Origin: Candidatus Iainarchaeum sp.
GTDB lineage: Archaea > Iainarchaeota > Iainarchaeia > Iainarchaeales > JAZDFD01
Direction of reading: 5' to 3'
NCBI GenBank assembly: GCA_043808155.1
Contig: JAZDFD010000016.1
Coordinates: 1 to 64,000, forward strand
Length of the DNA stretch: 64,000 nt
The first letter of the stretch is position 1. Every line of letters starts with the position of its first letter. The notes under the pieces were generated by a model. That model saw only the letters and a list, made by a program, of their open reading frames with translations, made no database searches and had not been told where the DNA came from. Shown one piece after another: positions 7,991 through 14,260 of this stretch. Position numbers and translations under genes: made by a program.

Positions 7991-8088
7991 TGTCGTTGAT
8001 TGCCGTTATAACTCCGTACAAATAACGAAATATTTATAAAGGTTTGAATGCAAAAGTTATAGGATATCGCAGTCGGAGATGCGTGATT

Positions 8089-9375
8089 ATGCAAAGTGAA
8101 AAAACCTCAGAATTGGAAAAATTTTATTCTAAAAGTCTAGATGAAAGAATGAAAACTGTTTCCGAATTTGCAGAATTAAGTGAAAATGAAATTGCAGAAT
8201 TGAAAACCTGCATTCAAAACACTGAAAAAGCAGATAAAATGTCTGAAAATGTTATTTCATCAACTTTTTTTCCTTTGTCAGTTGCAACTAATTTCAAAAT
8301 CAATGGAAATGATTATCTCGTTCCAATGGCAATCGAGGAAGCCTCAGTTGTTGCTGCAGCGTCAAATGCTGCAAAACTTTGCAGAACATCTGGGGGATTT
8401 GAAGCAAAAGCATCTGAACAAATAATGATCGGACAGGTTCAGATTGTGAATGTTAAAAACACTGCACAGGCAAAAACCAAAATTATGACAAACCAAAAAG
8501 AAATTCTGAAACTTGCAAATGCACAGGATAAAACATTAGTGAGTTTTGGCGGCGGTGCTAAAAAAATCGACGTGAAAGTTTTCAGAAAGCACAAAATGAT
8601 TGTGGTTTATTTGTATGTTGACGCTAAGGATGCAATGGGTGCAAACGCAGTAAATACAATGGCAGAAGCAGTTGCACCAAAACTTGAAGAATTAAGTAAA
8701 GGAGAAGCGAGATTAAGAATCCTGAGTAATTTAGCGACTGAAAGAATTGTAAAAGCAAAAGCAGTTTGGACAAAAGAAATTCTTGAAAAGAATTCAAAAA
8801 ATGAGCTAAGCGGACCTGAGATTATTGAAAGAATTTTAGACGCGCATAAATTTGCAGAATTAGATGTTTATAGAGCATGCACTCACAATAAGGGAATTAT
8901 GAATGGAATTGATGCAGTTGCAATTGCAACTGGGAATGATTTCCGAGCGCTTGAGGCAGGTGCGCATTGTTATGCTTCATTGGAAGGAAATTATAAACCA
9001 CTAACTAAATTCCATAAAAATAAAACTGGTGATTTAGTTGGTGAAATTGAAATTCCATTAGCAGTTGGAATTGTTGGTGGTGCAACCAAAACACACCCAA
9101 TTGCGAAAATTGCAATGAAAATTTTAGGAATTCAAAGTGCAAAAGAACTTGGATGTGTTATGGCGTGTGTTGGTTTAGCACAAAATTTTTCTGCATTGCG
9201 TGCATTAGCAAATGACGGAATCCAAAAAGGACATATGAGTTTGCATGCGAGGAATATTGCGATAATGGCAGGTGCAACTGAACAGGAAGCAGATAGTGTT
9301 GCAGAAAGAATGATTAATGAGAATAACGTTAAAGTTGACTCTGCAAAAGAAATATTAATGGAAATTAGAAGGTGA
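8089..9375 (+). CDS. mvaA: HMG-CoA reductase, class II (bacterial/degradative type)
   Basis: [52 protein letters not shown] and GIQKGHM.LH are class II signatures. Confidence 0.93.
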
Positions 9376-9379
9376 AAAT

Positions 9380-10423
9380 ATGGCTGGTATTGTTGGTTAT
9401 GGTGCGTATATTCCGATTTTGAGAATTAAAGTTGAAGATATTGCAAACGTCTGGGGCAAAGACGGAAAGAAAATTGCTGAAGGCCTCGGAGTTAAGGAAA
9501 AAGCAGTTGCTTCAATGGATGAAGATGCCTGTACAATTTCAGTTGAAGCTGCGAGAAAGGCACTGGAAGTTTCAGGAATTGATGCACAGAGTATAGGTGC
9601 AATTTACGTTGGTTCAGAATCACACCCCTATGCAGTAAAACCTACTGCTTCAATAGTTGCAGATTCAATTAATGCAGGTCCGGATTTAACTGCTGCAGAT
9701 TTGGAATTTGCATGCAAAGCAGGAACTGCAGGAATTCAAATGTGCATGGGTCTTGTTGATTCAGGAATGATTGATTATGGTTTGGCAATTGGTTCAGACA
9801 CTGCTCAGGGAAGACCAGGTGATGCATTAGAATACACTGCAGGTTCTGGCGGAGCTGCTTTCATCATCGGAAATAAAAAAGAAGAAGTAATTGCAGAAAT
9901 TGATTTAACTTACTCATTTACAACTGACACTCCTGATTTTTGGAGAAGACAACATGCGGAATTTCCAAGACATGCCGGAAGATTCACTGGAAAACCTGCT
10001 TACTTCAAACATGTTTCAAGTGCTGCAAAAAAGTTAATGGAAAAAGCAGGAACAACACCTGATGATTACAAATATGCGGTTTTCCATCAGCCAAATGCAA
10101 AGTTCCCGCAGACAGTTGCGAAAATGCTTGGTTTTAAAGAAGAAAAAATCAAACAGGGTTTATTAGTGCCCTTTATTGGAAACACATATTCAGGTGCTGC
10201 AATGATTGGTTTAGCATCAGTTCTTGATGTTGCAAAACCAAATGATAAAATCTTAGTTGTGAGTTATGGCAGCGGTGCAGGAAGTGACGCATTCAGTTTA
10301 ACAGTAACTAAAAATATTGAAAATAAACGAGCAGAAGTTCCTTTGTTTGAAATGATTAAAGAAAAGAAATATCTGGATTATGCAAACTATGCAAAACATA
10401 GGGGAAAATTAAAATCTTTGTAG
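9380..10423 (+). CDS. Hydroxymethylglutaryl-CoA synthase (archaeal type)
   Basis: [21 protein letters not shown], catalytic [28 protein letters not shown]. Confidence 0.96.
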
Positions 10424-10431
10424 GTGTTGTG

Positions 10432-11517
10432 ATGAGAAGTGTATCGATAATTGGTGTTGGATTCGATAATTGTTTCACACCAAAAAGTTCATCGGAAATT
10501 AGGTCACCAACTCATTTATATGCTGAAAATTATTCAAATTATAATATGCAAATTTCTAAATTTCGTTTGATTAGAGCTACGCAGAAATTGCCAAACGATG
10601 CATCTTCTAGAGAAATTGCAACAGCAGCAGGATATAAATCACACAAAATAATTAATATTTATTTTGAATCTTTAGAGCAACTCAAGACACAAGCTGGAAC
10701 TCTGGAATCAAATAAAGATGAAGTTAATCAAGTTTTTCCACAAATTGAATTTAGTTTGCAGGACATTTCGAGAGGAATTCAAATTCCTCTTGATATAACA
10801 CCACTTTTAGCAGAGGAAATTGGATGGCATATAGGTGATGGTTGTATTCCAAATAACAAAAATGGGAATGCAATATACCAACTTGGTGGAGATCCAAATG
10901 AAGAAAGAGAATTCTACGAAAATTATATCAAAAAGACTTTCAAAGCATTATACAACTATAATGCGAAACCTAACTTTTTGGCAAAGGGTAATCTATTTGG
11001 GATAACTTTTGCATCAAAAGCAATTTTTGATTTCAAAACAAAAATTTTAGGATTCCCAATCGGTAAAAAATCTCATATTATAAGGATTCCTGACGCAATA
11101 ATGTTTGGTGATGATGAAAACAAAAAAGCAGTTATTCGCGGAATTGCAGACACTGACTTTTCAGTCACATTTCAAAAAAAACATAAAAATTTCCATTATT
11201 ATCCTGCAATTATAGGCAGCACCGTCTCTAAGACATTAGCCACTCAATTAAAGTCACTTTTAATTCAATTAGGTTTTAAACCAAAAGTACAAGTCTATTT
11301 TAGAAAAAGAACACAACATAACGAATATTTGATTAGACTAATGGGTAAAAATCAATTAGAAAAATGGTTTGATATTATTGGTAGTAATAATCCAAAACAC
11401 ATAACAAAATACAATGTATGGGCAAAAGTCGGATTTTGTCCTCCTTATACGAAAATTGTTCAAAGACAGAAGATTATAGAAGGGCATCTAAATCCGAAAA
11501 AATTTTATGGTGGTTAA
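10432..11517 (+). mobile_element. Free-standing LAGLIDADG (DOD-type) homing endonuclease whose first 10 residues mimic the thiolase N-terminus
   Basis: Two LAGLIDADG-like helices, LLAEEIGWHIGDG and AVIRGIADTDFS. No intein splicing blocks are present. N-terminus MRSVSIIGVG matches thiolase MRSVSVIGAA. Confidence 0.85.
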
Positions 11518-11518
11518 T

Positions 11519-12679
11519 ATGCGTAGTGTATCTGTAATAGGGGCAGCTGTAACAAAATTTGGCGAACACTGGGACAAAAGTTTCCGTGAGTTAATTGCAG
11601 AAGCAGGAATTAAAGCAGTTGCAGATTCCGGTGTTGAAGGAAATAAAATTGAAGCAATTTATGGCGGGTGTATGGCATCTGGAAGATTCATTGGTCAGGA
11701 ACACATAGGTGCACTAATTGCAGACCAGCTTGGTTTGAATCCAATCCCCTCTACAAGATTAGAAGCGGCATGTGCGTCTGGTGGTGTAGCACTAAGAACT
11801 GCATATCTGTCAATTGCAGCTGGCGTTTATGATATTGTTGCAGTTGGCGGAATTGAAAAAATGACTGAAGTAAGTACGGAAGAAGCAAGTTTTGCATTAG
11901 GCGGTGCAGGTGATGAAGAAACAGAATTGTTTCATGGTGCAACATTTCCTTCGTTGTATGCACTTCTTGCACGTTCACACATGAAAAAATTCGGAACAAC
12001 TGAAGAACAAATGGCAATGTGTGCAGTTAAGAATCATAAAAATGCAACAAAGAATCCTTATGCACAATTTCAAAGAGAAATTACTGTTGATGATGTAATG
12101 AATTCAGGTTATGTTTCCACACCACTTAAACTTCTGGACTGCTCACCAATAACTGATGGTGCTGCTGCATTAATTTTGTGTGAAACAGAAAAAGCAAAAC
12201 AGATTACTCATAAAGCAGTTGAACTTGTTGGTTCAGGACAAGCGTCGGATTCACTTGCACTTGCCGGCAGAAAAAGTTTGACAGAATTAAGCGCAACAAA
12301 AATTGCTGCTGAGCAGGCATATAAACAATCTGGTTTGAATGTAAAAGATATTGATTTTGCAGAAGTACATGATTGTTTTACAATTGCAGAAATTCTTGCA
12401 ATTGAAGATCTTGGATTTTTCAAAAAAGGAGAAGGCGGAAAAGCAACTGAAAAAGGTAAAACTCAGCTGGATGGTGAAATACCAATCAACACTTCTGGTG
12501 GATTGAAAGGTAAAGGCCACCCTGTTGGTGCAACTGGTGTTGCACAGGCAGTTGAGGTTTTTTGGCAATTAAATAATGAAGCGAATCAAAGACAAATTAA
12601 AGATGCAAAAGTTGGTTTAACACACAATGTTGGTGGTTCAGGAGCAACAGCTGTTGTTCATATATTTAAAAAAGCATAA
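11519..12679 (+). CDS. Acetoacetyl-CoA thiolase (archaeal acetyl-CoA acetyltransferase)
   Basis: TKFGE, catalytic EAACASGG, DCSPITDG, EVHDCF, KGHPVGATG, HNVGGSG. GGTGG RBS precedes the ATG at 11519. Confidence 0.96.
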   Translation: MRSVSVIGAAVTKFGEHWDKSFRELIAEAGIKAVADSGVEGNKIEAIYGGCMASGRFIGQEHIGALIADQLGLNPIPSTRLEAACASGGVALRTAYLSIAAGVYDIVAVGGIEKMTEVSTEEASFALGGAGDEETELFHGATFPSLYALLARSHMKKFGTTEEQMAMCAVKNHKNATKNPYAQFQREITVDDVMNSGYVSTPLKLLDCSPITDGAAALILCETEKAKQITHKAVELVGSGQASDSLALAGRKSLTELSATKIAAEQAYKQSGLNVKDIDFAEVHDCFTIAEILAIEDLGFFKKGEGGKATEKGKTQLDGEIPINTSGGLKGKGHPVGATGVAQAVEVFWQLNNEANQRQIKDAKVGLTHNVGGSGATAVVHIFKKA

Positions 12680-12687
12680 GTGATTTT

Positions 12688-13866
12688 ATGAACTACGAAG
12701 AAGAATCTCTGAAGATTCATGAACAAGATAAAGGAAAAATGGAATTAGTTCCCAAAAGAAGAATTACAAATATTGATGAACTTTCAGTTTTGTACACTCC
12801 GGGAGTTGCAGAACCTTCACGTAAAATTGCAGAAAACAAAGAAGATGTTTACAAATATACAATGAAAGGAAATGCAATTGCAATAGTAACAGATGGTTCA
12901 GCTGTTTTGGGTTTGGGAAACATAGGTCCTGAAGCAGCGCTTCCTGTAATGGAAGGGAAATCATTACTGTTCAAACAGTTTGCAAATATAGATGCATTTC
13001 CAATTTGTGTAAAAACACAGGATGCAGATGAGATTGCAATGATTGTGAGAAATATTTCACCTGCATTTGGTGCAATCAATCTGGAAGACATTTCTGCACC
13101 GCGTTGTTTTGAAGTAGAAGAAAAACTTGCAGATTTGGGAATACCTGTTTTTCATGATGATCAACATGGAACTGCAATCATAACACTTGCAGCACTTATC
13201 AATGCTGCAAAACTTTCAGACAGAAAGTTAGGTGAATTAGAAATTGCAATTAATGGTGCAGGTGCTGCCGGGACTGCAATTACAAAACTTCTGAAGAATG
13301 AAAAACTGCGTGAATTTGGTCTGGAACCGGTAAAAGAAATCATACTTTGTGATTCAAAAGGAATTATCTATTCAGGGAGAGAGGGGCTGAATAAGTACAA
13401 ACAGGAAATTGCGGAATTCACAAACACAAAAAATTTACAGAGCACGTTAGCAGATGCAATGCTGAACAAAGATGTTTTTATTGGGGTTTCAAAAGCAAAT
13501 CTTGTGGATGAAGAAATGATTAAATCAATGAATGAAAATCCCATTGTTTTTGCAATGGCAAATCCAATACCTGAAATCATGCCTGAAAAAGCAAGACATG
13601 CAGGTGCGAAAATAATTGCAACAGGGCGAAGTGATTATGCAAATCAGGCAAATAATGTTCTTGCTTTCCCTGGTGTGTTAAGAGGTGCATTAGATGCGCG
13701 TGCTACTAAAATTACTGAGGAAATGAAAATCGCTGCTGCAATCGCATTAGCAGATTACGTAGAAAATCCGAGTGTTGAAATGTTTATTCCAAATCCATTG
13801 GATGAGAAAGTTGCTTACTTAGTTGCTGAACGCGTAGCAGAAACCTGGAGGAGATTCAATGAGTGA
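12688..13866 (+). CDS. NAD(P)-dependent malic enzyme (small prokaryotic type)
   Basis: YTPGVA, TDGSAVLGLGNIG, PVMEGK, INLEDI, FHDDQHGTA, GAGAAG, AMANP, NNVLAFPG. Confidence 0.95.
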   Translation: MNYEEESLKIHEQDKGKMELVPKRRITNIDELSVLYTPGVAEPSRKIAENKEDVYKYTMKGNAIAIVTDGSAVLGLGNIGPEAALPVMEGKSLLFKQFANIDAFPICVKTQDADEIAMIVRNISPAFGAINLEDISAPRCFEVEEKLADLGIPVFHDDQHGTAIITLAALINAAKLSDRKLGELEIAINGAGAAGTAITKLLKNEKLREFGLEPVKEIILCDSKGIIYSGREGLNKYKQEIAEFTNTKNLQSTLADAMLNKDVFIGVSKANLVDEEMIKSMNENPIVFAMANPIPEIMPEKARHAGAKIIATGRSDYANQANNVLAFPGVLRGALDARATKITEEMKIAAAIALADYVENPSVEMFIPNPLDEKVAYLVAERVAETWRRFNE

Positions 13867-14260
13867 TAATTTACCCCTGCATTGGAGACGATATCCTGAA
13901 AGATATTATCTGAAAGGAACATTGTGTGAAATATGTAATACTGCATATTTTCCGCCAAGACAAGTGTGTCCAAAATGCAGACGAAAAGGAAAAATAAGAG
14001 ATGAAATAATGCCAAAAACTGGAAAAATAATTACTTATACTGAGTTAAGCGTAGGGCCAATGGGATTTGAGCATGAAACACCTTACTTCTTGGCATTGAT
14101 TGAACTGGATAATGGTGCAAAACTTCTAAGTCAGGTTGTAGATTCAAAAAAAGAAAAAATAAAAGAAGATGCAAGAGTAAAAAAAGTCTTCAGAAAAATC
14201 GCAGACAACGATGCAGAAGGTGCAATCTCATATGGTTTTAAGTTTAAAGTTGTTGAATAA
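13859..14260 (+). CDS. DUF35 Zn-ribbon/OB-fold protein (thiolase/HMG-CoA synthase scaffold)
   Basis: WRR..ERY.L.G, CEIC...FPPR..CPKC and YGFKF motifs; located in the thiolase operon. Confidence 0.93.
   Translation: MSDNLPLHWRRYPERYYLKGTLCEICNTAYFPPRQVCPKCRRKGKIRDEIMPKTGKIITYTELSVGPMGFEHETPYFLALIELDNGAKLLSQVVDSKKEKIKEDARVKKVFRKIADNDAEGAISYGFKFKVVE

Follow-up and report, generated by a model that had tools for sequence, protein, structure and literature searches.

Homing endonucleases are thought to persist in essential genes by means of self-splicing introns or inteins, and otherwise to reside between genes. The nearest systems in the literature are the mORFs of fungal mitochondria, which act on the 3′ ends of genes, the free-standing endonucleases of phages, and the rRNA insertions of bacteria of the candidate phyla radiation (CPR). 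The mORFs are described from atp6 of Allomyces macrogynus and from atp6, atp9, cox2 and nad3 of Glomus (PMC3630166); according to the available part of that source, the endonuclease open reading frame (ORF) carries a foreign replacement C-terminus, and the native C-terminus is left downstream. Free-standing phage homing endonucleases, such as the Seg and Mob enzymes of T4 and mobE, are described as moving by intronless homing in the accessible parts of the sources (PMC2790892, PMC2988022, PMC10055350). The locus compared here with these systems lies in a window of 64,000 nucleotides (nt) of the tiny groundwater archaeon Candidatus Iainarchaeum sp. (positions 1 to 64,000 of contig JAZDFD010000016.1), in which a LAGLIDADG endonuclease ORF stands between the genes for HMG-CoA synthase (HMGS) and acetoacetyl-CoA thiolase. 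The comparisons make it likely that the ORF belongs to a free-standing LAGLIDADG homing-endonuclease cassette of 1087 bp, which occupies a site at about nt 32 (codon 11) of the thiolase gene and replaces its start.

The HMGS gene (9380..10423, plus strand; Pfam HMG_CoA_synt_N/C and ACP_syn_III_C) ends with TAG at 10421-10423. An AGGTG run overlaps this stop and resembles a Shine-Dalgarno sequence, one that probably first served the thiolase. The endonuclease ORF (10432..11517, plus strand; 361 codons plus TAA) begins at ATG 10432, eight bases past the HMGS stop, with ATG AGA AGT, and reads MRSVSIIGVG. Its TAA stop at 11515-11517 is followed by one base and then by the thiolase ATG at 11519, where ATG CGT AGT opens the reading MRSVSVIGAAV in the +1 frame relative to the endonuclease. 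The Shine-Dalgarno-like run of the restarted thiolase, GGTGG (11509..11513, plus strand), lies within the last endonuclease codons. The thiolase gene (11519..12679, plus strand; 386 codons; Pfam Thiolase_N and Thiolase_C_1) is intact, and its product aligns end to end, from residue 1, with the thiolases of relatives at 69-78% identity. An initial annotation, made from the letters of the window alone, had described this junction, and all its statements on the ORF starts, the AGGTG and GGTGG runs and the restart after 1 nt match the letters. As read from the sequence, the first 8-10 native thiolase codons remain as a stub (10432..10463, plus strand; nt 1 to ~32 of the old gene) that is fused in frame to the endonuclease ORF and now forms its N-terminus, and the intact thiolase restarts at the endonuclease stop or 1 nt after it. 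The cassette itself comprises a short linker, the endonuclease gene, and a 3′ Shine-Dalgarno run with substitute thiolase codons 1 to ~10. The linker (10464..10545, plus strand) reaches from the stub to a conserved internal Met (codon 39); it is poorly conserved and was delimited by the model confidence described below and by its open frame. The replacement thiolase 5′ end (nt 1-31; 11519..11549, plus strand) is recoded relative to the empty alleles and was delimited with a metagenome contig and a codon signature.

Comparison of the two starts showed identity in 8 of 10 residues and 20 of 30 bases. In a six-frame translation of the whole 1,077,490-base genome, the peptide motif RSVS[IV]I occurs exactly twice, at these two starts. 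Local DNA alignment of the first 150 nt of each ORF gave 17 identities in 23 positions, a score matched by 5.6% of 2000 shuffles. The DNA match alone is thus marginal, and the significance of the duplication rests on its position, the protein match and its recurrence in relatives. No significant DNA likeness to thiolase was found past codon 10, where 85% of 2000 shuffles equalled the score against the gene's own sequence and the lowest shuffle share among the 24 alleles tried was 0.02, uncorrected for multiple tests. A stub extending beyond codon 10 was rejected, the following stretch being no closer to thiolase 5′ sequence than shuffles. A duplicated start was found in none of 15 other LAGLIDADG loci (13 from relatives and 2 from the same genome), whose scores were at most 24 compared with 36 here; this sample rejects start duplication as a general trait of LAGLIDADG paralogues.

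Thiolase was found in 29 of the 41 genomes first searched. HMGS lies directly upstream of thiolase on the same strand in all 26 endonuclease-free loci that show both genes, with a gap of 0-33 nt in 15 and of 119-839 nt, containing small ORFs, in 11. No endonuclease remnants were found in the 11 long gaps, where all profile E-values (expectation values, E) exceeded 0.4. The HMGS stop, the spacer and the stub of the window look exactly like the empty site of the relatives. Further alleles were seen in short assembled contigs from four groundwater-metagenome runs (X1-X4), and pieces of the endonuclease gene are present at 100% identity in runs X1, X3 and X4. A near-isogenic contig of run X1 (168 nt, depth 2.3) connects 10451 with 11550 through 11 letters, CGGAACAGGAT. 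Its left side corresponds to 10417-10451 (35 letters, at least 90%), through nt 20 of the stub, and its right side rejoins the window at thiolase nt 32 with 116 of 122 positions identical. After stub nt 20 the contig codes, by our own reading, for I-G-T-G-L, and the joined sequence reads MRSVSIIGTGLTKFGE. A contig of run X2 (340 nt, depth 6.17), also endonuclease-free, joins 10426 to 11528 with AGAAAATGAGAAGC in between. Each of the two contigs is exactly 1087 nt shorter than the window, which gives the length of the cassette and an insertion at about thiolase nt 32. The initial annotation had proposed an insertion about 10 codons into the thiolase gene, which the empty contigs now place at ~nt 32 (codon 11), and had predicted that the empty allele should read MRSVSIIGVG-x-TKFGE; the X1 contig gives this reading near-exactly, and the 19 empty alleles of relatives with the same type of N-terminus read MRSVSIIG-x-G-x-TKFGE.

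Codon comparisons indicate which of the two starts is native. The Arg2 codon of the stub is AGA or AGG in all six loci (AGA in the window), and that of the restart is CGN in all six (CGT in five, CGA in locus L054). The same position in the 19 empty alleles is AGA or AGG in 15, AAG in one and CGN in three; the excess of CGN in the restarts (6/6 vs. 3/19) has a Fisher probability of about 5e-4, in a sample whose related members are not independent. The class of the Ser5 codon in the stub follows the host: G172 and its endonuclease-free congener G027 both have AGC, and G008 and G037 have AGT/AGC. The Ser5 codon of the restart is always TCN. A 20-nt restart signature, RTGCGTAGTGTNTCNRTNRT (RTG CGT AGT GTN TCN...), occurs in 6 of 196 genomes, namely the five carriers and G129, and a reversed control pattern occurs in none of the 196. 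The window stub matches the thiolase start of L024, its best match among relatives, at 26 of 30 nt, compared with 20 of 30 for its own downstream copy. Between G172 and G027 the stub is identical in 23 of 24 nt; nt 1-33 of the restarted thiolase are 64% identical, compared with 83% for the remainder (Fisher p 0.0097), and this stretch ranks 9th lowest of 286 in identity. Comparison of G173 with its congener G003 gave 61% for nt 1-33 and 80% for the remainder (p 0.013; 26th of 275). The divergence of the restart between G008 and the more distant G037 was not significant (p 0.19). These comparisons indicate that the stub is of host type and represents the native start, and that the working start is of cassette type and recoded. 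Codon classes, signature and congener pairs therefore agree with the proposal in the initial annotation of a recoded replacement 5′ end with the original start left in the endonuclease. The first 12 nt of the carrier restarts have an identity of 0.92 among carriers, 0.69 between carriers and non-carriers and 0.77 among non-carriers. Two further candidates were tried. A co-conversion tract in the carrier thiolases was rejected, there being no excess similarity past nt 12, and substitutions of G8 or G10, found in 4 of 6 carriers and 1 of 19 empty alleles, are weak candidates for immunising changes.

The close clade of the endonuclease was defined as the window protein and the eleven nearest of 45 homologues (E up to 1e-10), which show 44-55% identity. 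Members of the clade are only 44-56% identical, and it has 5 carriers among 196 genomes of the order and 5 among 215 of the phylum, in five families. All seven distinct loci with readable DNA, from five genomes and the metagenome loci L054 and L068, flank HMGS and/or thiolase; L053, which is near-identical to G008, was not counted. The same cassette family thus occupies one site in several families of the order, with close relatives lacking it, and no case was found among these loci of the same N-terminus in an unrelated context, the observation that the initial annotation had named as contradicting its proposal. An in-frame thiolase-like stub is present in all ten assessable clade members, in line with the suggestion that endonucleases copying the downstream gene start should be sought, and the partial metagenome locus L068 shows another. 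Seven of the eleven close homologues begin with MRSV, MRSI or MRGV; P0002 has the stub motif at residue 13, where its ATG forms ATGA with the stop of the preceding ORF, and in P0006 the motif lies ahead of the called start, within the open frame. The count covers neither P0008, which is cut by a contig end, nor P0011, which has no stub as called and is known as a protein only. The linker from the stub to the internal Met is free of stops in the fused frame in all six loci, and each of the 12 alternative frames contains 1-5 stops. In five of these six loci the stub ATG follows a purine-rich Shine-Dalgarno-like run. Purine-rich runs also lie 6-10 nt before the start of the restarted thiolase in all six filled loci read. 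Three loci have the thiolase start ATGCGTAG or GTGCGTAG, whose internal TAG serves as the endonuclease stop, and six clade proteins end in ...A, as such a stop/start overlap requires. The copy in G173 (L052, G173:C3:8289-11918) is a pseudogene with two TGA and one TAA in frame, in which the stub and the restarted thiolase are kept. The carrier thiolases do not form one clade: five changes are placed on the thiolase tree, and its well-supported branches force at least three. Only 2 of the 17 inner branches of this nearly unresolved tree are well supported, and it shows only that the carriers are scattered.

The 361-residue product of the ORF matches Pfam LAGLIDADG_3 with 27.1 bits (cut-off 22.5) and consists of the stub, the linker, a helical N-terminal module (approximately residues 36-115), a double LAGLIDADG core and C-terminal helices. 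Alignment of the 12 clade sequences showed that G135, D136 and G137 of motif 1 (AEEIGWHIGDG; 10810..10842, plus strand) are invariant, as are R236 and G237 of motif 2 (IRGIADTDFS; 11134..11163, plus strand), in which D240, D242 and F243 are at least 90% conserved; both motifs end in a conserved acidic residue. The profile of the close clade matches the endonuclease domain of the TliVMA intein (E 1.2e-6), PI-PfuI and I-DmoI. An AF2 model built from the 12 sequences has a mean predicted local distance difference test score (pLDDT) of 85.1, with values below 50 for residues 1-34, which comprise the stub and most of the linker. The best Foldseek matches of the model are 7qsu (8.4e-10), I-Tsp061I, PI-SceI and many I-DmoI entries, each with a probability of 1.00; for the known LAGLIDADG enzymes E ranges from 8.4e-10 to 1e-4, and the target-normalised template modelling score reaches 0.74 (I-DmoI). 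By its motifs, profile matches, predicted fold, in which the alpha-beta-beta-alpha-beta-beta-alpha arrangement occurs twice, and polymorphic but fixed site, the product is assigned as a monomeric double-motif LAGLIDADG homing endonuclease. The N-terminal module contains a helical, helix-turn-helix-like repeat (AGYKSHKIINxYF; window 10432-10776, alignment columns 50-130), with one copy in the window protein and two in all 11 homologues, and Pfam names no family for it.

Several observations weigh against the proposed insertion and replacement of the start. The X2 allele begins with the host-type ATG AGA AGC and then approaches the recoded copy of the window, and it has no endonuclease; the contig has 9 differences in 201 nt, of which at least 4 lie after 11628, so that by our count at most 5 can fall in 11528-11549. 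The empty contigs are short, of low depth and from relatives that are approximately 95% identical, and so show only that such alleles exist. Among the contigs aligned, none spans the window's own junctions (~10462 and 11518). The clade enzymes are old, as their 44-56% identity indicates, and no recent transfer is therefore visible between the sampled genomes; the patchy distribution could be explained by losses alone. At nt 13-60 the identity of carriers with one another is 0.65, that of carriers with non-carriers 0.63 and that of non-carriers with one another 0.66. Past nt 12 the restarts are thus no more alike than any pair of thiolases, and a shared foreign origin of codons 5-10 is not demonstrable. 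G129 has a cassette-type thiolase start with neither endonuclease nor stub, and a small membrane ORF ending in ...ENA has a stop codon that overlaps it. This start may be of the donor type or may be a footprint of loss, and the X2 allele poses the same question. The recoding is accordingly linked to the cassette yet not exclusive to it. The changes of G8 and G10 are weak evidence, since the S8 of G173 is common to its endonuclease-free congener G003.

An alternative history is one in which a single ancestral insertion in the order descended vertically and was mostly lost by deletion between the short direct repeats, the protein being nuclease-inactive or domesticated as a DNA-binding factor similar to WhiA. 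Such a history would account for the low identity within the clade and for the missing excess of flanking thiolase similarity among carriers past nt 12; the duplicated starts would provide a ready route to precise loss, of which the X2 allele and G129 could be the footprints, and WhiA is among the structural matches (rank 36). However, a presence in 5 of 196 genomes distributed over five families would need very many independent losses, endonuclease-free congeners of G172 and G173 exist, and the approximately 95%-identical relatives of the window also lack the cassette. Conservation in the clade extends to both catalytic acidic positions and to the GDG and DTD motifs, the decaying G173 copy with its three stops is at odds with a needed host function, and the Ser5 and Arg2 codon classes of the restarts are of cassette type even where the host type differs. 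An old insertion lost by deletion is therefore considered rather unlikely. The stub might instead be a dead relic, with translation of the endonuclease from the conserved internal Met, a fusion without a role and a thiolase start that is not hijacked. This Met is conserved 26-38 codons past the stub in all six loci read, one gene caller placed the start of P0006 there, and residues 1-34 are predicted to be disordered. It is nevertheless unlikely that the stub is dead, given that the fused frame is open in 6/6 loci and the 12 alternative frames are closed despite the poor conservation of the linker, that Shine-Dalgarno-like runs precede the stub ATG in 5/6 loci whereas the sequence before the internal Met is AT-rich and has no such run, and that the stub ATG of G008 overlaps the upstream stop as ATGA.

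Removal of the insert by splicing, as a group I or II intron, an archaeal bulge-helix-bulge intron or an intein, with an incidental duplication, is suggested by the nearest solved relatives of the enzyme, which are intron- and intein-encoded archaeal endonucleases. However, the ORF is closed by a stop of its own, and Pfam gave no Hint or intein family for the 361-residue sequence (E up to 0.01), as the initial annotation had also concluded from missing intein blocks. The thiolase is read in a different frame and has a start and a Shine-Dalgarno run of its own. Its complete ORF aligns from residue 1 with those of relatives, which makes splicing unnecessary. No Rfam group I or II intron family was found in 9800-12200 (E up to 1), a search that did not cover the bulge-helix-bulge motif; the sole Rfam match there was a spurious lncRNA with 14.8 bits against a gathering score of 70. 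Splicing is thus highly improbable. An assembly artefact that fused two strain variants of the thiolase start, a concern already raised in the initial annotation, would be conceivable, since the genome is metagenome-assembled, the same runs contain related strains that differ in their alleles, and no aligned contig spans the two junctions of the window. The recurrence of the same architecture in the independent assemblies G008, G172, G132, G173, L054 and L068 and the endonuclease pieces at 100% identity in three runs leave such an artefact barely credible.

The cassette that replaces the thiolase start works like an mORF and is its 5′ mirror image, but lies outside the mORF set. Both place an endonuclease ORF (mostly of the LAGLIDADG type in mORFs) inside a coding gene near one end, both carry a diverged replacement gene end and a native remnant that is nearer to the empty allele of close relatives, and in both the ORF can be in phase with the host gene and splicing is unneeded (the mORF side as given in the available part of PMC3630166). 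In contrast to the mORF, which is described there as replacing the 3′ end, the archaeal cassette replaces the 5′ end and leaves the native start upstream, and its host is not a mitochondrial genome but an operon of a roughly 1.08-Mb archaeal chromosome. Because the 5′ end is replaced, the endonuclease would take the initiation signals of the host gene, for which a new Shine-Dalgarno run and a new start then become necessary. The phage endonucleases resemble the cassette in being free-standing genes beside or within essential genes, with patchy and decayed copies, and they are mobilised with flanking DNA by double-strand-break repair (PMC10055350, in its accessible part); the same mobility would apply to the cassette. 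As far as the available parts of the phage sources go, however, these endonucleases are usually intergenic, are protected by polymorphisms of the neighbouring genes and are not fused to a duplicated start, as the cassette is. The mobE gene in nrdA of phage Aeh1 is described, in the part of the source at hand, as splitting the gene into two polypeptides (PMC3045599), whereas the thiolase stays whole. I-DmoI and I-Tsp061I, from rRNA introns, and the endonucleases of the TliVMA, PI-PfuI and PI-SceI inteins have the monomeric double-LAGLIDADG fold in common with the cassette enzyme. They ride in introns or inteins that restore the product by splicing; the cassette has neither, and its enzyme differs by the extra N-terminal helical module and the thiolase-derived stub. 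No 5′-end version, and no such cassette in a protein-coding gene of archaea or DPANN, was found in the literature covered, from which most subscription journals are absent.

The arrangement suggests how the cassette could function and move. The endonuclease would be translated from the old initiation signals of the thiolase, coupled to the HMGS stop, and translation of the thiolase would in turn be coupled to the stop of the endonuclease. Since a replacement start comes with the cassette, neither an intron nor an intein is required. The enzyme would cut naive alleles around codons 7-15, where the conserved stretch IIGxGxTKFGE is encoded, and double-strand-break repair would copy the cassette into the cut allele. 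Immunity of the filled alleles would follow from the splitting of the site in the stub and from its recoding in the replacement 5′ end. These steps of cutting, repair and immunity are drawn from established LAGLIDADG homing and from the mitochondrial mORFs. As a speculation, the cassette may have originated by one-sided repair, in which the right end came from a donor with an endonuclease just upstream of a G129-like thiolase start and the left end was joined illegitimately inside codons 8-11; such an origin would account for the conservation of the internal Met and for its absence in the linker sequence.

The surrounding genes follow the HMGR-HMGS-thiolase order of a mevalonate-pathway operon, with the HMG-CoA reductase (HMGR) gene at 8044-9375. 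Downstream of the thiolase lie a malic enzyme gene (12688-13866), a gene for a ChsH2/DUF35-type OB-fold protein (13859-14260) and, from 14276, the mevalonate kinase gene. The malic-enzyme and ChsH2/DUF35-type ORFs overlap by 8 nt, and the malic-enzyme gene splits the thiolase from the OB-fold gene, whose product we take to be the scaffold of the archaeal thiolase/HMGS complex. Small ORFs of about 65-260 residues stand between HMGS and thiolase in many relatives (loci L029, L030, L034, L039, L045, L047, L101 and L006/L050); they are poorly conserved and mostly hydrophobic or basic, and the window genome has none. Two more free-standing LAGLIDADG paralogues of 34-35% identity are present in the same genome (G000:C6:33451-34191, minus strand, and G000:C13:8588-9355, plus strand), between unrelated genes and with no duplicated gene start. 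In the relatives G023 and G010, distant paralogues are followed immediately by tRNA genes on the same strand, into which their open frames extend. The tRNA genes beside distant paralogues are tRNA-His in L011 (1401-1475, minus strand), tRNA-Arg in L013 (2145-2219) and tRNA-Ile in L007 (132-205), and in G009 a tRNA-Ile lies antisense at the end of a LAGLIDADG paralogue frame. No flanking tRNA-fragment repeats of at least 14 nt were found at the three tRNA-adjacent paralogues.

It may tentatively be asked, although the odds are somewhat against it, whether the cassette represents one lineage within a broader class of archaeal 'start-replacement' homing cassettes that has yet to be described. Such a class would give homing endonucleases a third means, in addition to introns and inteins, of staying silent within an essential gene. 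The endonuclease would take the ribosome-binding site and first codons of a host gene, and the host gene would be re-initiated from a start supplied by the cassette, which has its Shine-Dalgarno run within the final endonuclease codons and often overlaps the endonuclease stop (ATGCGTAG). Expression of the host gene would then be coupled to the selfish gene, which would favour an open endonuclease frame and have an addiction-like effect. The naive (X1) and recoded (X2, G129) empty alleles would be the susceptible and resistant stages of a present-day homing cycle in groundwater.

For homing endonucleases in essential genes, the cassette would represent a different solution in an archaeal chromosome, that of swapping the start of the gene. 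For annotation, gene callers yield a chimeric "thiolase-like" N-terminus on the endonuclease at such loci. The locus also offers a natural test system, in which both the 1087-bp element and its target, the conserved thiolase 5′ end of the mevalonate pathway, are defined. Related groundwater metagenomes contain filled alleles as well as naive-looking and recoded-looking ones, the filled and naive-looking kinds occurring in a single run, and about ten diverged enzyme variants are all apparently aimed at one site. This material could be used to study the co-evolution of LAGLIDADG specificity and target immunity, as well as translational coupling in DPANN archaea.

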